DNA of 64,000 nt from an uncultured Chloroflexia bacterium (GTDB lineage Bacteria; Chloroflexota; Limnocylindria; Limnocylindrales; CSP1-4): assembly GCA_963813535.1 (NCBI GenBank), contig CAWEZH010000001.1, positions 1 to 64,000 on the forward strand, read 5' to 3'. Both the position numbers and the translations under genes were made by a program. The notes under the pieces are model-generated. The model was not told where the DNA came from. It saw only the letters and a list, made by a program, of their open reading frames with translations, and searched no databases. Every line of letters begins with the position of its first letter. The first letter of the stretch is position 1. This document shows positions 49,998 through 62,872 of this stretch, piece by piece.

Positions 49998-52900
49998 TCA
50001 GCGAGGCGCACGCAGGACGAGGCCGCGGTACCCAGCCGAGAAACCGGCCTGGAGCAGCCGCTCGCGCCACGGCGATTCCCCCACGGCGACGCCATCGATC
50101 TTGCGGATGACGAGCTCGCGGGCGCGTCCGGTCCCGACGATCGACGTCAGCCCGCGGAGCGCCGACTCGGCGACGTCCGGGTCGTCGGCGGCCGGCAGGG
50201 TCTGGATCGTGGCCCCGCCGCGCTCGAGGTACAGAGCGGCGATGCCGTCGACCAGCACGACGTACGCGCCGGCAGCCCGCTGGAACGGCCGCCGATCATC
50301 GTCACCGCGGCGAGGCCAGGCGAGCGCGGCACCGTACGGATTCGCGGGGTCGGCCGCCGCGAGGACGTGGACGGCCGGTGCGGCCGAGCCTTCCTCTCCA
50401 TCCCGCACGGCGCGAAGTCGGTCGAGCGCGCCGGCCAGGGCGAATTGCGCCGCGCCGAGCCCGTCGACGAAGTAGCCGCGCCGGATCCGGCCCGCCTCCT
50501 CGAGCGCCCGGAGCACCGGGTACACGCCGGAGAAGCCGCCCTCGAGCCCCTCCGACACGACGGCCTCCCGTGTCAGGACCCCATGACGTTCCAGGAGAGC
50601 GAGTGCCTGCGCGTGGAGCCGCTCGGTCGGCGTCACCCCGTCGATCGGCTCGACGAGCGACCAGCGACCCGCCGCCTCGGGTGGTCCCAGCGCGGTGAGC
50701 CGACCTGGGCGAGCGCGACGAGCACCCGACCCCGGACCGGTGGGTCGCTTCCAGCGCAGCGCGCGCAGCGGCGCGAACGTGTCGTTGGTGACTTCGCCCG
50801 CCCAGACCAGGTCCCACAGCGCGTCGAGCATCTCGCGGTCCGAGCCACCACCCGCCGCCGCATGGACCGCGCGGTAGAAGCTCGCCCCGCGGCCAGCGAG
50901 GTGCTCGCGGATCTTCTCGTGGCGCGGGCTCGACGGCCGCGACGTCGCGTCGTCGTTCGCGTCGACCAGTGCGTGGGGCCGGAGGATCTCGCGCTCGGGC
51001 CGATAGAGGGCGATCCGCCCGTCGTCGCGGCCGAGGCTGCCCCGCCCGACCCACGCGACCTCTCCCATCGCGCCGAGCTCGTCGAGGAGGCGCGGGGTGT
51101 AGCCAGGGACTCGCGCCGGCAGGACGTCCCGTTCCAGGACCGATGCCGGGATCGCGACACCGGCGAGCTGGTCGACGATCTCGGCCAGTCTCTCCATCGC
51201 GGCCGTGCCGCGGAAGAGCGGCGGGTCGGCGCCGGGTCCGGCGGCCGGTGCGATCCCGTGCCAGGCGGGCAGGAACCGGCCGAGCGCCGCCGGGTCGACC
51301 GGTTCGACCTCACGCCGCAGGCGCGCCAGCGAACGGCGGCGAAGGAGGCGCAGGACATCGGCATCGGACCACTCGCGTTCCACGCCACCCGGCCGGAACT
51401 CGCCCCGGATGATCGTTCCTGCGGCAAGCAGCCGCTCGAGCGCGTCGTCGACGATGCCGACGGGCAGACCCCAACGCGCCGCCGGGTCCGGCGTCAGGAA
51501 CGGGCCGTGGGTGCGGGCGTACCGGGCGAGCAGACCGTCGAGTGCGCCCACGGCGGGAGCCAGGAACGCCTCGGGTACGCCAACGGGTGCGGTGACGCCG
51601 ACGCCGTCACGGTAGCGTGCGACGTCCTCGATCGCGATCCAGCGGTCGTCGCCCGCCATCCGGACGCGCACAGCCCGCCGGCCACCCTCGAGATCCGCCA
51701 GCCACGGTCGGACCGCGTCGGACCCACCGACCACGCGCGCAGCGAGCTCGTCGGTCGACAGGTCGCCGAGCCGGCGCAGCAGGTCGTGCACCTGGTCGAC
51801 CGTCGTCGCCTGGCGATCCTCGGCCAGGGCCTGGAGCGACAGCTCGAGGTCGGCGAGCGCCTCGGGATCGAGCAGCTCGCGCAGCTCCTCCTGGCCGAGC
51901 AGCTCGCGGAGGAGGTCGCGGTCGAGCGTGAGGGCACCGGCCCGCCGCTCGGCCAGCGGAGCGTCGCCTTCGTACATATAGGCCGCCACGTAGTCGAAGA
52001 GCAGGCTGCTCGCGAACGGACTCGCGCGGGGCGTCTCGACGCCATGGACCGCGATCTCCCGACTCGCCACACCGCGCAGGACGTCGCGCAAGGCGTCGAG
52101 GTCGAAGACGTCCGACAAGCACTCCCGGTAGGTCTCGACGAGGATCGGGAAGCTGCCATAGCGACTCGCCACCGACAGCAGGTCGGCCGCTCTCTGGCGC
52201 TGCTGCCACAGCGGCGTGCGGGTGCCCGGGCGGCGGCGCGGCAACAGCAGCGCACGGGCGGCGTTCTCGCGGAAGCGACTCGCGAACAACGCGGAGTTCG
52301 CGACCTGACCGACGACCAGGTCCTCGATGTCCTCGGCCGCCGGGAACAGGAGATCCTCGATGCCGTCGACGCTCCCCTGCCCTTCCGGGAGACGGATGGC
52401 GATGCCGTCGTCGGACCAGATCGTCTGGACCTCCGTCCCGAGCCGATCGGCGAGGCGCGCCTCGATCCCGAGCGACCACGGGGCGTGGACCCGACCGCCG
52501 AACGGCGTCAGCAGGGTCAGCCGCCAGTCCCCGAGCTCGTCGCGGAACCGCTCGACCACGACCCGTTTGTCGGTCGGCAGGGCTCCGGTCGCTTCACGCT
52601 CGTCCTCGAGGTAGTCCAGCAGGTTCTTGGCCGCCCGGTCGTCGAGGTCGTGGTGTTCGCGGAGACGATCGTGCGCTGCCTGCCGGCCCTTCGGACCGCG
52701 CTGCAGGTCGCCTTGGATCTCGCCGACGAACGCGCCGAGTGCGCGGCCCAGCTCGATCGGGCGGCCGACGGCGTCCCCCTTCCAGAATGGCAGCTTGCCG
52801 GGGACGCCTGGGGCAGGCGTGACAGTGACCCGGTCGTGGCTGATGTCCTGGACGCGCCAGGAGCTGGCACCCAGGACGACCACATCCCCGTGCATCCCGG

Positions 52901-54578
52901 CTCGCAGCTCGTAGACCATCTCTTCGTCGAGCTCGCCGACGCGCCGACCCGGCGTGCCGGCCTCGCCCTCCATGAACACGCCGAACAGCCCCCGGTCGGG
53001 GATGGTCCCGCCGCTGGTCACGGCCACGACCCGGGCGTCGCGCCGACCCTCGATGGTGTCGGTGACGCGGTCCCACACGAGACGCGGCTTGAGCTCGGCG
53101 AACTCGTCGGATGGGTATGCGCCAGCGAGCATGCCCAGCACGCCGTCGAGGACGTCGCGGGTCAGCGTCTCGTACGGCGCCGCCGCAGTGACGGTCCGGA
53201 ACAGGTCGTCGCCGGTCCATCGATCCATGACGGTCATGGCGACGATCTGCTGGGCGAGGACATCGAGTGGGTTGCGCGGGATGCGCGTCTCCTCGATCTC
53301 ACCCTCGTGCATGCGCCGCGTGACGACCGCGACCTCGAGCAGGTCGCCGCGGTACTTCGGGAAGATGACGCCCTTGCTCGGGGCGCCGACCTGGTGCCCG
53401 GCTCGGCCAACGCGCTGGAGACCCCGGGCGACACTCGTCGGCGATTCGACCTGGATGACCAGGTCGACGGCGCCCATGTCGATGCCGAGCTCGAGCGAGC
53501 TCGTGGCGACCAGCGCCGGGAGGCGGCCGGCCTTGAGCTCCTCCTCGATCTCGAGACGCTGCTCGCGGGCGATGCTGCCGTGATGGGCGCGGACGAGGTC
53601 CTCGCCGGCCAGCTCGTTGAGGCGCTGGGCGAGTCGCTCACTGAGCCGTCGGCTGTTGGTGAAGACGATCGTGCTGCGGTGGCTCCGGATCAGCTCGAGG
53701 ATCCGCGGGTGGATGGCCGGCCAGATGCTCGAGCGCGCGTCCGGGCTGATGGCCGGCCCGCCTGGCTGCTGCTCCTGGGGAAGGACATCGCCAAGGGCGG
53801 CCATGTCGTCGACCGGGATGACGACCTCGAGCTCGAGCGGCTTGCGCGCACCGGCATCGACGACGGTGACCTCACGGTCGGGGCCGATGCCACCGAGGAA
53901 CCGAGCGATCGTGTCGAGTGGTCGTTGCGTGGCGGACAGGCCGATCCGCTGCGGGGGCGGGGTCGTCTCGGCGTCTCGGAGCCGGTCGAGGCGTTCGAGG
54001 CTGAGAGCGAGATGGGCGCCCCGCTTCGTGCCGGCGATCGCATGCACCTCATCGATGATCACGTGCTCGACGTTGTGCAGGATCTCGCGCGCCTGGCTCG
54101 TCAGCAGGAGGTACAGGCTCTCGGGGGTGGTGATGAGGATGTCGGGCGGCCGGCGGGCGATCTCCCGTCGGTCCTCGCTGGGCGTGTCGCCGGTCCGGCT
54201 GGCGACGGTGATCGTCGGAGCCGCATCGCCGAGCTTCTGGGCGGCGAGTCCGATGCCGGTGAGAGGTGCCCGGAGATTTCGCTCGACGTCGTAGGTCAGC
54301 GCCTTGAGTGGCGAGACATAGAGGACACGAACGTGACCGGGGTCCTGCTTGGTGGCAGCCGGGCTGGGATCCCGGGCGAGCCGGTCCAGCGCGAACAGGA
54401 ACGCAGCCAGGGTCTTGCCGCTGCCGGTCGGGGCATGGATCAGCGTGTGCTCGCCCCGGGCGATGGCCTCCCAGCCCCGCGTCTGGGCGTCGGTGGGCGC
54501 CTCGAAACTGGCTTCGAACCATGCGCGGACTGCGGGTGAGAACGGCGCGAACGGGTCGGCGGGAACGATGGTGGCCAC
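49998..54578 (-). CDS. lhr: Long Lhr helicase with C-terminal winged-helix/glycosylase-like extension
   Basis: APTGSGKT, DEVH, SAT, HHGS, SSLELGID and QRVGRAGH; about 1526 aa; C-terminal AADPANPYG. Confidence 0.95.
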   Translation of the reverse strand: MATIVPADPFAPFSPAVRAWFEASFEAPTDAQTRGWEAIARGEHTLIHAPTGSGKTLAAFLFALDRLARDPSPAATKQDPGHVRVLYVSPLKALTYDVERNLRAPLTGIGLAAQKLGDAAPTITVASRTGDTPSEDRREIARRPPDILITTPESLYLLLTSQAREILHNVEHVIIDEVHAIAGTKRGAHLALSLERLDRLRDAETTPPPQRIGLSATQRPLDTIARFLGGIGPDREVTVVDAGARKPLELEVVIPVDDMAALGDVLPQEQQPGGPAISPDARSSIWPAIHPRILELIRSHRSTIVFTNSRRLSERLAQRLNELAGEDLVRAHHGSIAREQRLEIEEELKAGRLPALVATSSLELGIDMGAVDLVIQVESPTSVARGLQRVGRAGHQVGAPSKGVIFPKYRGDLLEVAVVTRRMHEGEIEETRIPRNPLDVLAQQIVAMTVMDRWTGDDLFRTVTAAAPYETLTRDVLDGVLGMLAGAYPSDEFAELKPRLVWDRVTDTIEGRRDARVVAVTSGGTIPDRGLFGVFMEGEAGTPGRRVGELDEEMVYELRAGMHGDVVVLGASSWRVQDISHDRVTVTPAPGVPGKLPFWKGDAVGRPIELGRALGAFVGEIQGDLQRGPKGRQAAHDRLREHHDLDDRAAKNLLDYLEDEREATGALPTDKRVVVERFRDELGDWRLTLLTPFGGRVHAPWSLGIEARLADRLGTEVQTIWSDDGIAIRLPEGQGSVDGIEDLLFPAAEDIEDLVVGQVANSALFASRFRENAARALLLPRRRPGTRTPLWQQRQRAADLLSVASRYGSFPILVETYRECLSDVFDLDALRDVLRGVASREIAVHGVETPRASPFASSLLFDYVAAYMYEGDAPLAERRAGALTLDRDLLRELLGQEELRELLDPEALADLELSLQALAEDRQATTVDQVHDLLRRLGDLSTDELAARVVGGSDAVRPWLADLEGGRRAVRVRMAGDDRWIAIEDVARYRDGVGVTAPVGVPEAFLAPAVGALDGLLARYARTHGPFLTPDPAARWGLPVGIVDDALERLLAAGTIIRGEFRPGGVEREWSDADVLRLLRRRSLARLRREVEPVDPAALGRFLPAWHGIAPAAGPGADPPLFRGTAAMERLAEIVDQLAGVAIPASVLERDVLPARVPGYTPRLLDELGAMGEVAWVGRGSLGRDDGRIALYRPEREILRPHALVDANDDATSRPSSPRHEKIREHLAGRGASFYRAVHAAAGGGSDREMLDALWDLVWAGEVTNDTFAPLRALRWKRPTGPGSGARRARPGRLTALGPPEAAGRWSLVEPIDGVTPTERLHAQALALLERHGVLTREAVVSEGLEGGFSGVYPVLRALEEAGRIRRGYFVDGLGAAQFALAGALDRLRAVRDGEEGSAAPAVHVLAAADPANPYGAALAWPRRGDDDRRPFQRAAGAYVVLVDGIAALYLERGGATIQTLPAADDPDVAESALRGLTSIVGTGRARELVIRKIDGVAVGESPWRERLLQAGFSAGYRGLVLRAPR

Positions 54579-54587
54579 GGACCTTGC

Positions 54588-54624
54588 AGTATAGGGTCCC
54601 GGGCACGTTTCGACCACATGTTCG
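54588..54624 (-). promoter_or_regulatory. lhr promoter with a putative LexA (Cheo-type) box
   Basis: Minus strand CGAACATGTGGTCG (54624-54611) is one mismatch from CGAAC-N4-GTTCG and overlaps the -35 position of a TATACT -10 (54593-54588). Confidence 0.65.
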
Positions 54625-56434: not shown

Positions 56435-57112
56435 TCAGTCGCTCCCGGCGACATCCGCCAGCGCACGCAGCAGCAGCGCGGACGAGGTTGCCCCGGGGTC
56501 CTGGTGACCGATCGAGCGTTCGCCCAGGTATGACGCTCGACCCTTCGTCGCAAGCATCGGAACCGTGGCGGAGGCTCCTGCCTCGGCGGCGTCGGCCATC
56601 GCGAGGGTCACCGCCGCACCGTCGGCCCCGGCGCTATCGGCCTCGCGGCCGGCGGCTACAGCCGGTATGAGGGCATCGAGCATGGTCTTCTCACCCGCAG
56701 AAGCCTTCCCGAGCGACTGGATGCCACCTATCGCCGCCTCGAGGCCTGCGACCAGGGCCCCCCGACTGCTCGTTCCCTCGGGCAACGAGGCGATGGCACC
56801 GGCGGCCCGCACCAGCGCGGTCCCGTACAGCGGACCCGCGGCGCCTCCGACGGTGCTGATCAACGTGCGGCCGGCCGCTCGGAGCCGCGCCGCACCCATA
56901 GCGAGCTCGCCCTCCGCATCGGGAAGTCCACCATCGAGGCTCGCGACGATCGCGGCAAACCCGCGGTCCATGTTGGTGCCGTGATCCCCGTCACCGATCG
57001 CCTGGTCGAGGGCGGTGAGAGCCGCCGCGTGTTCGTGGATGCGCGCCGCGGCAAGGCGCAGCCAGGCATCGATGATGTCGATCACGATTAGGTACCTCGA
57101 CGGTGTCGTCAT
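56435..57112 (-). CDS. dhaL: Dihydroxyacetone kinase ADP-binding subunit L
   Basis: LDQAIGDGDHG, GGAAGPLYG and KGRASYLGERSIGHQDPGA; start uncertain. Confidence 0.95.
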   Translation of the reverse strand: MTTPSRYLIVIDIIDAWLRLAAARIHEHAAALTALDQAIGDGDHGTNMDRGFAAIVASLDGGLPDAEGELAMGAARLRAAGRTLISTVGGAAGPLYGTALVRAAGAIASLPEGTSSRGALVAGLEAAIGGIQSLGKASAGEKTMLDALIPAVAAGREADSAGADGAAVTLAMADAAEAGASATVPMLATKGRASYLGERSIGHQDPGATSSALLLRALADVAGSD

Positions 57113-57171: not shown

Positions 57172-58194
57172 TCAGATGCCCCAGCGCAAGGCCGGAGTGT
57201 TGACCGGTGCGTCCCACCATCGAATGAGCGCATCATCCAGCCGCAGCAGGGTCACGGAGAACCCGGCCATCTCCAGGCTGGTGATGTAGTTCCCGACCAG
57301 CGAACGTCCGATCGAGATGCCCTGCCCCCCAAGGATCTTCGCGACGCTATTGAACGCCACGTAGAGCTCGATGAGCGGTGTGCCACCCATGCCATTCACG
57401 AAGGCCAAGACCGCATCGCCGCGGCTGAGTCCAAGGTCCGAGACGATCGGCGACACTAGCCACTCGGCCATGTCGTCGACCGGAGCGAGCTTCTCGCGGC
57501 GGCGGCCCGGCTCGCCGTGGATGCCGATGCCGACCTCGACCTCGTCGTCGGGCAAGTCGAACGTCGGCGTGCCGGCCGCTGGCACGACGCACGACGTCAG
57601 CGCCAAACCCATCGACTTGCCCTGCTCATTGACCTTGGTCGCCGTCGCGGCCACCTCCGCCAACGAGCCGCCGGCCTCGGCATGCGCGCCGGCGATCTTC
57701 TCGAGCAGGACCGTGACGCCGACACCACGCCGGCCCGCCGTATAGAGCGAGTCCTGGACCGCCACGTCGTCGTTGGTGACGACGGTCGCGACCTCGATCT
57801 CGCCAGCCACGAGCTCGGAGGCGAGTTGGAAATTCAGCACGTCCCCGGTGTAGTTCTTGACGATGTGCAAGACGCCGGCCCCGCCATCGACGGCCCGTGT
57901 CGCGGCCTCCATCTGGTCAGGTACCGGCGACGTGAAGACATTGCCGGCGGCTGCCGCGTCGAGCATGCCCAGGCCGACGAAGCCGCCATGGAGGGGTTCG
58001 TGACCGGAGCCACCGCCGGAGATCAGGGCGACCTTGCCCCGCTTCGGCCCGCCGGCGCGGAGGACGAGATTCTGGCTCAGGTCCACTTTGACAAGGTCCG
58101 GGTGAGCGGCCTGCATGCCGCTGAGGCTCTCGGGGACGATGTCCTCGATCGCGTTGAAGAGCTTCTTCACGCGGGTCGGTGCGGTGGTCGCCAT
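57172..58194 (-). CDS. dhaK: Dihydroxyacetone kinase subunit K
   Basis: [14 protein letters not shown] and GIGIHGEPG. Confidence 0.97.
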
Positions 58195-58245: not shown

Positions 58246-59013
58246 TCAAGCGGCTTCGTGGGCGTGCTCGGCGACTGCCGCGCCCGGCACGGTGGCCGTA
58301 CGCGTGTGGCCGATGAACTGGTACGCGAAGGCGCCGACGAGACCGCCGACGATGGGGCCAGCCACGTAGACCGGGAGCAGGGCTCCGAGGTTGGTCTTCG
58401 AGCCGATGATCAGCTCGAGGATCTCGGGACCGATCTGGCGGGCCGGGTTCAGCGCGGCGCCGGTGATCGGGCCGACCAGGATGATGATCCCGTACACGAT
58501 GAAGCCGATCACGATCCCGGCGAAACCGGCCGGGGCTCGGCCGTCGACGGCGGCACCGAACACCGTGAAGACGAGGATCGCCGTGCCGATGACTTCGGCC
58601 GCGAAGCCGATGCCGATGCCGGCGTTGGCATTGACATCGACCGCGCCCAGACCAAGGGCGACGGGGTCATTGCCGGTCAGGATGATCAGCGTCAAGCCGG
58701 CGCCGAACAGCGCGCCGACGAGCTGCGCGCCGATGTACCCGATCGCGGTATTGGTGTCGATCTTGCGGGTCGCGAGCAGGGCGATCGTCACCGCGGGGTT
58801 GATGTGGCAGCCGCTGATGTGGCCGACCGAATACACCGCCGCGAAGATCGCGAAGGCGAAGGCGAACGAGATCGTCGAGAGTTCGGCGCTGCCGAACGGG
58901 TTCTCGCCGGTCAGCAAGAGGGTGAGCGGGACCGAACCTGCGCCGATGAAGACGAGGATCGCGGTACCGATCGCTTCGGCTGTCAGTTTCTGGGACATGG
59001 TCGGGGACGACAT
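58246..59013 (-). CDS. MIP family channel (aquaporin/glycerol facilitator)
   Basis: Two NPA motifs (HINPAVT, LNPAR). Confidence 0.94.
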   Translation of the reverse strand: MSSPTMSQKLTAEAIGTAILVFIGAGSVPLTLLLTGENPFGSAELSTISFAFAFAIFAAVYSVGHISGCHINPAVTIALLATRKIDTNTAIGYIGAQLVGALFGAGLTLIILTGNDPVALGLGAVDVNANAGIGIGFAAEVIGTAILVFTVFGAAVDGRAPAGFAGIVIGFIVYGIIILVGPITGAALNPARQIGPEILELIIGSKTNLGALLPVYVAGPIVGGLVGAFAYQFIGHTRTATVPGAAVAEHAHEAA

Positions 59014-59042: not shown

Positions 59043-59312
59043 TCAGCCGGCCTGGCTGACGTATGGGGCGAGCTCCGCCCGAAGGGCGGCGAGCGCGGCA
59101 TCGGCATCTGGGCCATCCGCCGCGAGGGTGATCTCGGATGACGGTCGGATGGTCATCCCGAGTAGGGCGATGAGGCTTTTCGCGTCCGCCTCGCGACCGT
59201 CCTGCCGGACGATGATCCGGCTGGTGAATCGACTCGCCGCCTGGACGAATCGAGCCGCTGGCCGCGCGTGGAGCCCGGATGGGTCAAGGACGACGAGACG
59301 GATCTCCGACAT
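59043..59312 (-). CDS. ptsH: HPr phosphocarrier
   Basis: GLHARPA (His15) and DAKSL (Ser46). Confidence 0.95.
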   Translation of the reverse strand: MSEIRLVVLDPSGLHARPAARFVQAASRFTSRIIVRQDGREADAKSLIALLGMTIRPSSEITLAADGPDADAALAALRAELAPYVSQAG

Positions 59313-59315
59313 CTG

Positions 59316-59720
59316 TCAGTCCCGCGGCAACTTGGCCATGGTCGCGGCCGATCCGGCCGCGGTAACGACCTCGTCGATCGACGCGCCGACGCTGGCCTGG
59401 ACGGCGGCGAGCACGGCGCCCTCGACGAGTGGCGCCTCGCTGATGCGGACCCGGGCTCGGTCCGTGTCGCTCAGGTCCTCGAGCGCCAGCTCGAGACTCA
59501 ACGCGGCGCTTCCGAGATCAAGCAGGACGACCGCGCCATCGGCGCGGTCGAGAACGAAACGGACCGCCTCGCCGATGCGCAGTGCGCTCGTACCTAGACG
59601 GCCATCCTCGGTCCCGCCCGCGGTCGCCACCGGAACGGCTGCACCCGCCACCTGCGCGACCATCTCGCGCAGGCCCTCGACAAGCGTGCTGCTGTGGGAA
59701 ACGAGGATCAGGCCCACCAA
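59316..59720 (-). CDS. dhaM: DhaM EIIA(Man)-like phosphotransferase subunit
   Basis: LVSHS, GGTEDGRLGT, DLGSA and APLVEGA; AAGGAGG RBS. Confidence 0.93.
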   Translation of the reverse strand: MVGLILVSHSSTLVEGLREMVAQVAGAAVPVATAGGTEDGRLGTSALRIGEAVRFVLDRADGAVVLLDLGSAALSLELALEDLSDTDRARVRISEAPLVEGAVLAAVQASVGASIDEVVTAAGSAATMAKLPRD

Positions 59721-59792
59721 GCGCGCCTCCTTTCACATCCGGGTGGGTTGCACCCGGGTTGTCGGTCGGGAGCGATCCTCCGCCCGATGTCG

Positions 59793-59831
59793 TCAAGAAG
59801 AAAGCAAGGGCGCAGCAAGAGGTGCGCAGAA
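59793..59831. promoter_or_regulatory. 11-bp-period direct repeats (candidate OmpR/PhoB-type operator)
   Basis: CAAG at 59794, 59805 and 59816, and CAGA at 59827, in the divergent intergenic region. Confidence 0.5.
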
Positions 59832-59906
59832 TGTCGCGATCCGGAGGTGGGTCCCGCACAGATGGCGTTGCCCCGGTGTCGGCGACTGGACTATCGTCGG
59901 CCGACC

Positions 59907-60560
59907 GTGTCCGCCCGGCCGTCACCCCCGAGTCACGACATCATCGATGCGACCGCGATCTGCGCTGCCCTCGGTCGCTGTCGCGTGATGGTCGAGCGGC
60001 ATTCCACCTACCTGACCCGGCTCGATGCGATCCTCGGCGACGGTGACCATGGCGACAATCTGGTGATCGGCTTCCGTGCCGTCGACACGATGCTCATGGA
60101 CCTTCCCCGAGGCACGCCACCCGGCGAGGTGTTGCGGGCCGTCGGACATCGATTGGTCGCCGCCGTCGGGGGAGCGTCCGGACCCCTCTACGGCACGGCC
60201 TTCCTCGAGGCAGGGGCCACGGCCGGGGACGCGCCGACCCTCGACTCGTCGCTACTCGGCCCGATGTTGTCTGCCGCAGCCGACGGCCTCGCCCGCCGTG
60301 GACGGTGCGCCCTGGGCGACAAGACGATCCTTGACGCCCTCAGACCCGCGGCCGACGCATTCCTCGAGTCGATCACAGAGGGTCGGTCGCCGGCTGATGC
60401 GATGGCCGCCGCGGTGCGGGGGGCGGCCCGTGGGATGCGAGCGACCCGCCCCCTCGTCGCCCGGCGGGGGCTCGCCTTGCGACTCGGTGAACGCTCCATG
60501 GGCCATCTCGATCCAGGAGCCGTCTCGTGTGTCCTCCTGCTCAAGGCGATCGGTGGCTGA
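59907..60560 (+). CDS. Second DhaL paralog (GRASY loop changed to GLALR)
   Basis: LDAILGDGDHG, GGASGPLYG, GDKT and LGERSMGHLDPGA; start taken at GTG 59907 after TATCGT. Confidence 0.88.
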   Translation: MSARPSPPSHDIIDATAICAALGRCRVMVERHSTYLTRLDAILGDGDHGDNLVIGFRAVDTMLMDLPRGTPPGEVLRAVGHRLVAAVGGASGPLYGTAFLEAGATAGDAPTLDSSLLGPMLSAAADGLARRGRCALGDKTILDALRPAADAFLESITEGRSPADAMAAAVRGAARGMRATRPLVARRGLALRLGERSMGHLDPGAVSCVLLLKAIGG

Positions 60561-62169
60561 GCGAGCCAGGTCGTCCGTGCGGATGGACATGGTGGACAAG
60601 TCCGCGCTACTGAGCCGGATCGACGCGCTCGAGCGTGACCGACGACGGGCGTTCGATGATGCCCAGCGCGAGGCAGATGCCCTCTTCGCTCAATACCAGC
60701 TCAGCCAGCTCATCTCGACCGGCGGGACCCTCCAGGAGCTGACTGGTGCCGTCCTGCTGGAGCTGCTACGCCTGGCCGACGCGGCCGGTGGTGCATTGTG
60801 GATCGGCGATCACGGTGAGACAGGCATCAACCTCGTGACGACCGTCGGGTCCACACCCGACGCGTCGATCGAGGCGACGTTCGCGGACATCGACGCCCTG
60901 CGAAGCTGGGCAGCGTCCCTGCCCGGTGCCAGCGACATGCAGCTTGGGGACGCGGTCCTACGGGCGGCGATCGTGATCTGGCCGGCAGCCGGGCAGGACC
61001 TCGATGAGGATGGGCTCCGGATCGTCCTGCTCGCACGACACGAGCTGCTGGTCGCCTTGCAGGGCGCCCGGCTCCGGGAGGCACTGGAGCGAGAGCGCGA
61101 CGAGCTGGGCGCCATCGTCGACGGCGCCACCGACCTGATCCTGCAGGTCGACGCGGACGGCTCGGTCGTGCGGCTGAACCCGGCCGGCGAACGATTGCTC
61201 GGCATCGCGGCTGAGGCGGCTGTCGGTCAGTCGTGTGCGGACGTGCTCGGCTGCGAGATCGCCGGTGGGCACGCATCGGTCGAATGCCCGCTGGCCGAGG
61301 TGCGCAGCACCGGCCAGCCGATCGCCTATCGCGAGTCAGCGATCCGTGGAGCCGCTGGAGCCCCGATCCGGGTCGCCGGCAGCTTCGCGGTATCGGGTAC
61401 GACCTCCGGATCCGATGCTCGCGCGACGGCCATCCTGCGTGATATCAGCGCCGTCCAGGCGCTCGAGGAATTGCGCGAGGGTTTCGTCGCGACGGTGAGT
61501 CACGAACTTCGGACACCCTTGGCCCTCATCCGTGGGTATGCCGAGACACTCCTTCACCTCCCGCTCGAACCGGACCAGCAGCGCGCCTACGTCGAGCGGA
61601 TCGATGAGGCCACCAATCGGCTCGCGACTCTCGTCGACGAGGTTCTCGACGTCACCCATCTCCAGGCCGATCCGCTGATCCTCGATCGTCGGGTGACGAC
61701 GTTCGACTCGCTCGTTGCCCGCTTGCGCGGCGACCTCGCGATGTCGCGGCAGGACGAGCGTCTCGTCGTCGATGCCAGCCCCGACCTCCCGGAGATCGAG
61801 GTCGATATCACGCGCGTCGGCCAGATTCTGGCGAACCTGGTGGGCAATGCGATGAAGTACGCGCCGGAGAGCAGCCTCGTGGTCCTGGGCGGGACCATCG
61901 CTGACGACCAGTGGCTGGCGGTCACTGTCGACGACGAAGGCATCGGCATCCCCGAGCAGGAGCGAGTCCTCGTCACCGAGCCGTTCCATCGCGCGTGGAA
62001 CGTTCGCGAGTCGCGCATCCCCGGGACCGGCCTTGGCCTGTTCATCTCGCGTCGCCTGGTGGAGGCCCACGGTGGTGAGCTCAGCGTGGGCGATCGCCCG
62101 GACGGCCGCTCCGGCACGCAGGTGCGGATCACGCTGCCACTCGCGTCGAACCAGCCCGACGATGGCTGA
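60553..62169 (+). CDS. Soluble sensor histidine kinase (GAF-like + PAS + HisKA + HATPase)
   Basis: No TM segment; PAS (RLNPAGERLLG), SHELRTPL, NLVGNAMKY, DEGIGI and GTGLGL. Start at 60553 or 60583. Confidence 0.93.
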   Translation: MAERARSSVRMDMVDKSALLSRIDALERDRRRAFDDAQREADALFAQYQLSQLISTGGTLQELTGAVLLELLRLADAAGGALWIGDHGETGINLVTTVGSTPDASIEATFADIDALRSWAASLPGASDMQLGDAVLRAAIVIWPAAGQDLDEDGLRIVLLARHELLVALQGARLREALERERDELGAIVDGATDLILQVDADGSVVRLNPAGERLLGIAAEAAVGQSCADVLGCEIAGGHASVECPLAEVRSTGQPIAYRESAIRGAAGAPIRVAGSFAVSGTTSGSDARATAILRDISAVQALEELREGFVATVSHELRTPLALIRGYAETLLHLPLEPDQQRAYVERIDEATNRLATLVDEVLDVTHLQADPLILDRRVTTFDSLVARLRGDLAMSRQDERLVVDASPDLPEIEVDITRVGQILANLVGNAMKYAPESSLVVLGGTIADDQWLAVTVDDEGIGIPEQERVLVTEPFHRAWNVRESRIPGTGLGLFISRRLVEAHGGELSVGDRPDGRSGTQVRITLPLASNQPDDG

Positions 62170-62872
62170 CACGGTCCTCATCGTCGAGGACGAACCCGAA
62201 TTCCTCGGCCTGGTCGAGTTGTGGGTGGGACAGGCGGGCTTCCGGACCGTCACTGCCCGCACCGGGCCCGATGCACTGCGCCGCTTCTACGACGAGCGCC
62301 CGGACCTCGTGGTCCTCGACGTCGCATTGCCCGGCCTTGACGGCTGGCAACTGCTGGAGCGGCTACGCGAGTTCAGCCGCGTGCCGATCATCATGCTCAC
62401 GGCACGAGGCTCCGAAGCCGAGAAGATCCGTGGCTTGAAGCTCGGCGCCGACGACTACATCACGAAGCCCGTGTCCTTCCCCGAGCTCATCGCCCGCGTG
62501 GAAGCGGCCCTCCGCCGGGCGGGAACCAGCACGCCGGAGCGGTCGAGGCGGCTCCGTCACGGGGAGATGGTCGTCGACCTCGACGATCATCGAGCGCACC
62601 TGCGCGGCGTCGAGATCGACCTGACCCCGACCGAATTCCGCCTGCTCGCATTCCTGGTCGAGCACAGTGGTCAATTGGTCACCCATCGGCAGATGCTCGG
62701 CGGGGTCTGGGGAGCCGGCTACGACCGTGATGTCCACCTGCTGCGCATGACCGTCCGCAACCTGCGCCTCAAGCTCGATGCGGTCGCGCCCGGCGAATCG
62801 TTGATCGCGACGGAGTACGGCCTCGGCTATCGGCTCGTGGGCGCGCACTCGGACGACGCCGCCAGAAGCTAG
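62162..62872 (+). CDS. OmpR/PhoB-family response regulator
   Basis: IVEDE, VLDVALP, GADDYITKP and winged-helix LTPTEFRLL...GLGYRL. Confidence 0.95.
   Translation: MADTVLIVEDEPEFLGLVELWVGQAGFRTVTARTGPDALRRFYDERPDLVVLDVALPGLDGWQLLERLREFSRVPIIMLTARGSEAEKIRGLKLGADDYITKPVSFPELIARVEAALRRAGTSTPERSRRLRHGEMVVDLDDHRAHLRGVEIDLTPTEFRLLAFLVEHSGQLVTHRQMLGGVWGAGYDRDVHLLRMTVRNLRLKLDAVAPGESLIATEYGLGYRLVGAHSDDAARS

Follow-up and report, generated by a model that had tools for sequence, protein, structure and literature searches.

A DhaL paralogue without the catalytic arginine, encoded with a GAF-PAS histidine kinase opposite a dihydroxyacetone kinase operon, as a candidate protein co-sensor in Limnocylindria

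The stretch of DNA analysed here (the window) comprises positions 1 to 64,000 of contig CAWEZH010000001.1 from assembly GCA_963813535.1, an uncultured member of the Chloroflexota class Limnocylindria, and its final 9 kb hold two divergent operons in a region of approximately 69% G+C. Our subject is the plus-strand unit of three genes: dhaL2 (59907-60560, GTG start; 217 residues, Pfam Dak2 1e-45), a histidine kinase gene (60553-62169, GTG start; 538 residues, Pfam PAS, HisKA 8e-18 and HATPase_c 4e-24) and the gene of an OmpR/PhoB-type response regulator (62162-62872; 236 residues, Response_reg 3.5e-28 and Trans_reg_C 4.5e-19). Facing it on the minus strand is dhaM (59316-59720; Pfam EIIA-man 2.6e-25), which encodes a single-domain EIIA-man-type phosphoryl carrier and is the first gene of the dha operon. 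It is followed by ptsH, encoding HPr (59043-59312), a MIP channel gene (58246-59013), dhaK (57172-58194; Pfam Dak1 5e-124), a canonical dhaL that keeps the GRASY motif (56435-57112; Pfam Dak2 5e-45) and ptsI (54658 to about 56430, the start being uncertain), each of these five assigned by Pfam and by synteny in 59 loci. The minus-strand genes constitute a complete dihydroxyacetone (Dha) system of the phosphotransferase system (PTS) type. This gene map agrees with a first-pass annotation of the same DNA, which had placed the three genes divergently from dhaM-ptsH-MIP-dhaK-dhaL-ptsI; of the span that it gave, 59316-62872, the right-hand limit stands, but 59316 is the end of dhaM and the three-gene unit itself begins only at 59907.

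The three genes had also been described as joined by 8-nucleotide overlaps, and both junctions are found as described (60553-60560 and 62162-62169). An in-frame ATG at 60583 could serve as an alternative kinase start, in which case the overlap between dhaL2 and the kinase would vanish. However, overlaps of 4, 8 or 11 nucleotides recur in six intact orthologous loci (8, 8, 11, 4, 4 and 4 nucleotides between dhaL2 and the kinase; 8, 8, 8, 8, 4 and 4 between the kinase and the regulator). The GTG start of dhaL2 is backed by the matching N-termini of its orthologues.

DhaL2 passes the cut-offs that define a DhaL, with 156 bits against Pfam Dak2 (cut-off 27) and 180.7 against the 138.3 bits required by NCBIfam TIGR02365, and hhalign pairs it with Escherichia coli DhaL at a probability of 99.9% and 37% identity. 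Its Asp motif, LDAILGDGDHG, and its loop, RRGLALRLGERS where the metabolic DhaL has TKGRASYLGERS, are exactly as the first-pass annotation quoted them, and the Mg/ADP-binding residues D40, D45, D47, H48, GGASGP, K139-T140 and DPG are kept. To place these residues in a wider setting, 53 kinase-linked copies were compared with 77 canonical copies of the same loci and with E. coli DhaL. At least 95% of both groups carry E. coli D30, D35, D37, H38, N41, the G77-G78-A79-x-G81 loop (G88-G89-A90-x-G92 in DhaL2), K128, T129, D132, R185, H189 and D191-P-G, and the Mg/ADP ligands of DhaL, as named in the available text of PMC9136124 and PMC10848957, are among these residues; the Mg/ADP-binding motif noted in the single sequence is thus kept across both groups. 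E. coli R44, R178, S180 and Y181, present in 77/77 canonical copies, are replaced in 53/53 kinase-linked ones: R44 by I, T, V or A, S180 by L, M or V, Y181 by R, and R178, the arginine of the GRASY motif, by Leu in 51/53 and Ile in 2/53. The segment past the Asp motif, which reads D-R in canonical copies, has become a hydrophobic V-I, and R31, H32, R38, E101, C134, R192 and C208 (window numbering) have been gained and conserved in DhaL2. Where a locus holds two or three canonical DhaL copies, the change is confined to the copy adjacent to the kinase. Loss of the GRASY arginine and kinase adjacency co-occur perfectly (53/53 linked copies without it, 77/77 canonical copies with it).

That the GRASY arginine is needed for catalysis, as had been stated, is in line with the available text of a 2026 review (PMC13663913), where kinase activity is said to require the L-subunit arginine matching R178, and triokinase to be abolished when human Arg543 is mutated; the role of R178 is taken here from that review statement, as its primary basis lies in the works cited there (Zurbriggen 2008, Shi 2011). 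The ATP-dependent dihydroxyacetone kinase of Citrobacter freundii (DAK) likewise has G-R-A-S-Y. As R178 and its companions are replaced while the nucleotide/Mg pocket is kept, DhaL2, to judge from its residues, very probably can no longer carry out the usual reaction, though it would still hold nucleotide. The linked copies furthermore group together: in a FastTree phylogeny of 209 rows (near-clade canonical copies being taken from every fourth of the 59 loci), the 53 DhaL2 rows and 7 database representatives form one clade with a support of 99. The ratio of nonsynonymous to synonymous substitution rates is 0.12-0.20 for DhaL2 across four orthologues and similar for the kinase (0.12-0.14).

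The association of dhaL2 with the kinase extends well beyond the window. A first draw of 24 same-genus genomes gave a DhaL2 orthologue in 8 (67-92% identity), always about 3.5 kb from canonical dhaL and in identical gene order in all eight loci, of which L031 is cut by a contig end; L029 and L034 show frameshifts in many genes, which are taken as assembly errors, and two other genomes of the genus have dhaK-dhaL without the dhaL2-kinase module. A search with only the first 175 residues of the kinase as query, restricted to one genome per species, produced 59 loci, the eight same-genus genomes included. In 59/59 of these, dhaL2 immediately precedes the kinase and has dhaM as its divergent neighbour; the regulator lies downstream of the kinase in 57/59, the remaining two contigs stopping inside the kinase. 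Of 20 further loci, picked for a DhaL2-like match in a class sample of 401 genomes, 18 carry dhaL2-kinase-regulator, with kinase identities of 37-59%; they fall into three families, and dhaM stands beside the module in 17 of the 18. In the distant relatives L096-L109 (e.g. L097:2520-11264), the module is surrounded by as many as three DhaL copies of the canonical GRASY type and by two dhaM copies, and in family f4 one DhaL is convergent, just past the regulator. Throughout the 59 near and 18 distant loci, dhaK never follows dhaL2; the kinase does, and canonical dhaL follows dhaK.

Within the class sample, 133 of 401 genomes have a Dak2-type match. In a phylum sample, also of 401 genomes, matches of DhaL2 strength (identity of 51% or more, E no greater than 4e-51) occur in 12 genomes, all of class Limnocylindria; outside this class, the three best other-Chloroflexota matches (G604, G631 and G491) are canonical GRASY DhaLs without a kinase. 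A scan of metagenome contigs with P0012, a DhaL2-like representative of 53% identity that is sister to the DhaL2 clade, returned a soil contig (L131, 885-2921) on which a DhaL2-like gene with the loop ARCGLAMQYG is followed after about 130 nucleotides by the gene of a homologous kinase, in which the N-terminal helix motif, the GAF and the cysteine-bearing PAS recur together with an additional PAS-like domain at the N-terminus. No dha gene is present on the 884 bases upstream of this DhaL2-like gene, its neighbour there being a small zinc-finger-like open reading frame and not dhaM. Across all these samples, the constant is the dhaL2-kinase pair rather than the dha neighbourhood. The linkage, for which the first-pass annotation had asked conservation in other genomes, is thus found in 59/59 sensor-search loci, in 18/20 distant class loci and on L131; dhaL2, the kinase and the regulator are a translationally coupled unit that is conserved across a bacterial class.

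Candidates for natural DhaL2-kinase fusions were rejected, the long sequences P0078, P0105 and P0106 having only partial Dak2 or HisKA matches and being read as frameshifted read-throughs. As a separate observation, the Dak2 database representatives P0042, P0130, P0083, P0137 and P0021 have Dak2 joined to other domains, namely a cytochrome P450 (648 residues; loop GRASRLG, no Tyr), a 3-hydroxyisobutyrate-dehydrogenase-type NAD domain, a MIP channel, a full PtsI, and EIIA-man plus HPr; these are possibly fusions or read-through artefacts.

The kinase comprises an N-terminal helix (about residues 15-55), a GAF domain (about 60-160), a linker helix (162-192), a PAS domain (195-297), HisKA with H317, and HATPase_c. 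It was said to be without a transmembrane segment, with which its highest Kyte-Doolittle mean over 19 residues, 1.44, is in accord. Pfam recognises only PAS in the N-terminus of the window kinase; among 7 orthologues, one has a weak GAF match (GAF_3, E 0.003). A first model of the full-length kinase, with a predicted local distance difference test score (pLDDT) of 65.8, was too poor for searching, and residues 11-300 were modelled instead, from 53 sequences (pLDDT 91.2). In this model, a long helix at the N-terminus leads into an alpha/beta domain, which a linker helix of 30 residues connects to PAS; residues 22-172 align to the solved GAF domain 3cit_A (Z 12.7, root-mean-square deviation 3.2, 142 residues), and PAS structural matches reach Z 13.9. 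The order 'GAF-like then PAS' given previously is accordingly upheld, PAS by Pfam and GAF by the confident model together with the 3cit_A match. The N-terminal helix motif F-x-x-A-Q-R-x-A-D-x-x-F-A-x-Y-Q-L is kept down to 37% kinase identity. Three PAS cysteines, C228, C234 and C245 (C-x5-C-x10-C; window 61234-61287), are invariant in 53/53 aligned kinases, H240 between them is kept in the near clade only, and the L131 kinase PAS has a similar C-x5-C-...-C-x3-C; these cysteines may form a metal, iron-sulphur or redox site and so provide a second input to the kinase.

In the remainder of the kinase, 7 orthologues show no variation at H317 or at the residues of the N, G1 and G2 boxes, and the regulator has D53, T80 and K102 in its receiver, followed by a winged-helix output domain; the two proteins together possess the phospho-accepting His, ATP-binding boxes, receiver Asp and winged-helix domain of a classical two-component system. 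The regulator falls below every NCBIfam equivalog cut-off. Clustered at 90% identity, the sensor family has no fewer than 468 clusters among public sequences, each of them generically named. Searched with Foldseek, the sensor model retrieves the chains of E. coli DhaR(N), 4lry_C, 4lrx_C and 4lrz_H, at ranks 2, 5 and 13 (E 6e-9 to 9e-8), in alignments of about 290 columns that run end to end over chains of 291-295 residues, and DhaR is the fourth-best PDB match of the sensor profile (hmmsearch E 0.0032, 20.4 bits).

A candidate operator lies between the two operons at 59793-59822, where the direct repeats TCAAGAA/GCAAGGG/GCAAGAG place CAAG at 59794, 59805 and 59816, a spacing of 11 bp. A footprint of the dhaM-dhaL2 intergenic regions in 59 rows (the window and 58 loci) contains one strongly conserved block, TCAAGAA-N4-GCAAG-N7-(T/G)CAAGAG. 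CAAG-N7-CAA is present in 59/59 rows, two exact boxes in 47/59 and three in 33/59, against a mean of 0.18 rows for shuffled sequences, and the CAAG triple occurs once in the 3.28-Mb genome. The CAAG repeats were not found in the distant family, which has two or three xT(G/C)AGGA repeats, 11 bp apart and in the same place, in 6/6 loci. Regulators of the OmpR/PhoB type bind tandem direct repeats spaced one helical turn, and we infer that the regulator encoded here binds the repeats at 59793-59822. On the plus strand, a -10-like TATCGT (TAnnnT; 59892-59897) lies 9 nucleotides upstream of the dhaL2 GTG, and TA[CG]ACT or TAnnnT recurs 7-11 nucleotides before the dhaL2 start in near and distant loci (including L097-L111); no Shine-Dalgarno sequence precedes this start, and the arrangement suggests that the dhaL2-kinase-regulator message is leaderless or has a very short leader. 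A consensus promoter scan of 59650-59990 gave no sigma-70 match; a minus-strand terminator-like site that the same scan placed inside the repeats is taken as chance.

The PTS content of the genome, which is about 93% complete, bears on what the system could report. A whole-genome search found one HPr, one EIIA-man (DhaM itself) and no EIIC match, from which the PTS appears to serve the Dha kinase only, and the PtsI-HPr-DhaM chain encoded in the operon looks like a private PTS for that kinase. The earlier suggestion that DhaL2 reports an 'ADP/ATP (PTS flux)' state is therefore too broad in its wording of 'PTS flux', the PTS here being apparently Dha-kinase-specific. There are three Dak2 matches in the genome; the third (G000:C2:530310-530801) lies within a 571-residue open frame that may encode a FakA/YloV-type protein. 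Directly downstream of ptsI, the list of open reading frames has one of 1539 residues with helicase-like motifs (49998-54617, minus strand).

The best reading of this locus sees in DhaL2 a pseudo-enzyme: a paralogue of the ADP-binding Dha-kinase subunit, devoid of catalysis, that acts as a protein co-sensor of the kinase with which it is co-transcribed. On balance we favour DhaL2 as the protein ligand of the kinase helix-GAF-PAS module, in a system that controls the dha locus. DhaL2 would bind this module by analogy with E. coli, where DhaL binds the GAF-PAS region of DhaR, and where DhaL co-activates and DhaK represses DhaR according to the available text of PMC12821955 and PMC10084136. Phosphorylated DhaM (DhaM~P) would then, in what we consider the most likely scheme, charge the DhaL2-bound ADP to ATP, and the charged DhaL2 could not discharge onto DhaK-bound dihydroxyacetone because R178 is missing. 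The ADP/ATP state of DhaL2 would in this way mirror the drain on DhaM~P by canonical DhaK-DhaL when dihydroxyacetone is present, and one nucleotide form of DhaL2 would toggle the kinase between its kinase and phosphatase modes. The phosphorylated regulator would ultimately bind the repeats at 59793-59822 and control both the dha operon and its own. In its full form, as a family of catalytically dead DhaL paralogues that serve as histidine-kinase ligands and whose PTS-charged bound nucleotide is read via a DhaR-like GAF-PAS module, the proposal is put forward tentatively, and we would give it rather less than an even chance.

Several observations weigh against the co-sensor proposal or against individual steps of it. 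The resemblance to DhaR(N) may be that of any GAF-PAS protein, since bacteriophytochromes score equally in Foldseek, the template modelling scores of DhaR(N) are only about 0.40, and hhalign of the sensor against DhaR(N) returns a probability of 10.9% over 58 PAS columns only; judged by the model, the kinase sensor and DhaR(N) appear to share a GAF-linker helix-PAS architecture, and the sequence signal between them is weak. In general, dha expression can do without the module, as L108 and L115 are dha operons without it and a match of DhaL2 strength is found in only about 51 of the 401 class genomes, a tally judged by score without single inspection of the genomes and taking in 7 unpublished ones (G273, G156, G122, G319, G182, G263 and G102), none of them among the loci examined. 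The three invariant cysteines mean that the kinase may read another signal at its PAS domain. Human Arg543 is equated with the GRASY arginine only by the wording of the review and by the neighbouring Gly542. Last, the step in which DhaL2 reports ADP or ATP would fail if the lost arginine were also needed for transfer from DhaM to ADP.

There is a serious rival to the nucleotide-reporter step, in which DhaL2 is a partner-switching adaptor locked in one nucleotide form and the signal is a competition between the kinase and DhaK or DhaM for DhaL2. DhaL2 would be captured or set free by DhaK, with or without its substrate, or by DhaM~P, and the kinase would be switched accordingly, in a parallel with the competition of DhaK and DhaL for DhaR; we allow this a fairly low probability. 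The available text of PMC13663913 calls the arginine that DhaL2 has lost indispensable for productive phosphoryl transfer, and its absence could block both half-reactions. The alteration of the segment after the Asp motif from D-R to a hydrophobic V-I points the same way: PTS-type DhaL is said to have a ten-residue cap that inserts into DhaK and DhaM (available text of PMC9136124), and C. freundii DAK has a 4-residue gap against the PTS-type DhaL segment past the Asp motif, by which the position of the cap has been provisionally placed in the alignment. The adaptor would also accord with dhaM as the invariable divergent neighbour and with the second dhaM of the distant loci. On the other hand, the nucleotide/Mg residues and His38 are strictly kept, where partial loss would be expected of a mere adaptor.

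It is improbable, in our estimation, that DhaL2 instead senses the free cellular ATP/ADP ratio, or some other nucleotide or ligand, and supplies the kinase with an energy input independent of DhaM. A nucleotide pocket kept beside an altered catalytic loop is what such a sensor would have, and the L131 pair is without dha genes on its stretch. Nevertheless, DhaL2 keeps the hallmarks of the PTS type (GDGDHG with its His, and a full-length following segment), unlike the ATP-dependent C. freundii enzyme, and in E. coli these hallmarks go with tightly bound ADP, for which the available text of PMC9136124 gives a half-life of 100 min; furthermore, the module lies beside dhaM in 59/59 near and 17/18 distant loci. 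Least probable of all is that DhaL2 is simply one more DhaL isozyme, acting on a different ketose or with a different DhaK, and merely co-transcribed with an unrelated two-component system whose kinase senses something else via its GAF or cysteine-bearing PAS domain: the equivalog cut-off is passed, several loci have multiple DhaL and DhaM copies and the three PAS cysteines are invariant, but DhaL2 has lost four residues that never vary in the 77 canonical copies, among them the arginine reported essential, a dhaK gene is never paired with dhaL2, and the linkage survives to 34-37% kinase identity and, on the L131 stretch, without dha neighbours.

The co-sensor proposal matters because the signals of most cytoplasmic histidine kinases are unknown, and here the genome itself points to a ligand, a pseudo-enzyme derived from the regulated pathway; the signal is directly testable with four purified proteins, namely DhaM, DhaL2, the kinase and the regulator. 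If true, it would extend the 'trigger enzyme' principle of DhaR/DhaL and DhaS/DhaQ to two-component signalling and offer a clear-cut instance in which a duplicated enzyme subunit loses catalysis and gains a sensing role. The more tentative full form would amount to a relay from the PTS to a two-component system that passes information without a phosphoryl group; it would also mean that DhaL-to-GAF-PAS sensing predates, or is independent of, enterobacterial DhaR. There is a consequence for annotation as well. Pipelines call DhaL2 a working DhaL because it passes the NCBIfam equivalog cut-off, and the kinase is annotated as generic or PhoR-type, and as a result metabolic reconstructions of abundant soil Chloroflexota over-count Dha kinases and miss the regulator.

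Small soluble proteins that carry the state of metabolism or of the PTS and bind a histidine kinase, thereby shifting its kinase/phosphatase balance, are familiar from PII with NtrB and from EIIA-Ntr with KdpD and PhoR; to our knowledge, none of these is a Dak2-fold protein with a permanently bound nucleotide, and none is a pathway-derived pseudo-enzyme. Staphylococcus aureus FakA, a Dak2-domain fatty-acid kinase, influences the output of SaeRS indirectly through fatty-acid pools, and it is a working enzyme that is not encoded with its two-component kinase. Full-text literature searches, whose coverage leaves many subscription papers outside, gave no paper on a DhaL paralogue coupled to a histidine kinase.

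A close likeness is to the E. coli DhaR-DhaL-DhaK system (PDB 4LRX, 4LRY and 4LRZ), in which, as is proposed by analogy here, a cytoplasmic GAF-linker-PAS sensor has a subunit of the Dha kinase for its ligand; in both cases a divergent dha operon is the controlled target, by proposal in ours, and the kinase sensor has DhaR(N) among its best structural matches over the full length. In E. coli, however, working enzyme subunits moonlight as regulators, whereas the subunit here is a dedicated paralogue without the catalytic arginine, and DhaR is a one-component AAA+/helix-turn-helix activator, whereas the output here is a HisKA/HATPase kinase with an OmpR-type regulator. A role like the one that we propose for DhaL2, in which a paralogue of a Dha-kinase subunit is given over to sensing for a dha regulator, is known from Lactococcus lactis, where the TetR-family regulator DhaS has the DhaK paralogue DhaQ as its co-activator (available text of PMC7590123). 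DhaQ is derived from DhaK and binds dihydroxyacetone, whereas DhaL2 comes from the nucleotide subunit DhaL, and the partner of DhaQ is a TetR-type DNA-binding protein where that of DhaL2 would be a histidine kinase. The principle is thus known from DhaR-DhaL/DhaK and from DhaS-DhaQ; the proposed two-component wiring through a dedicated pseudo-enzyme is, on the literature searched, new.

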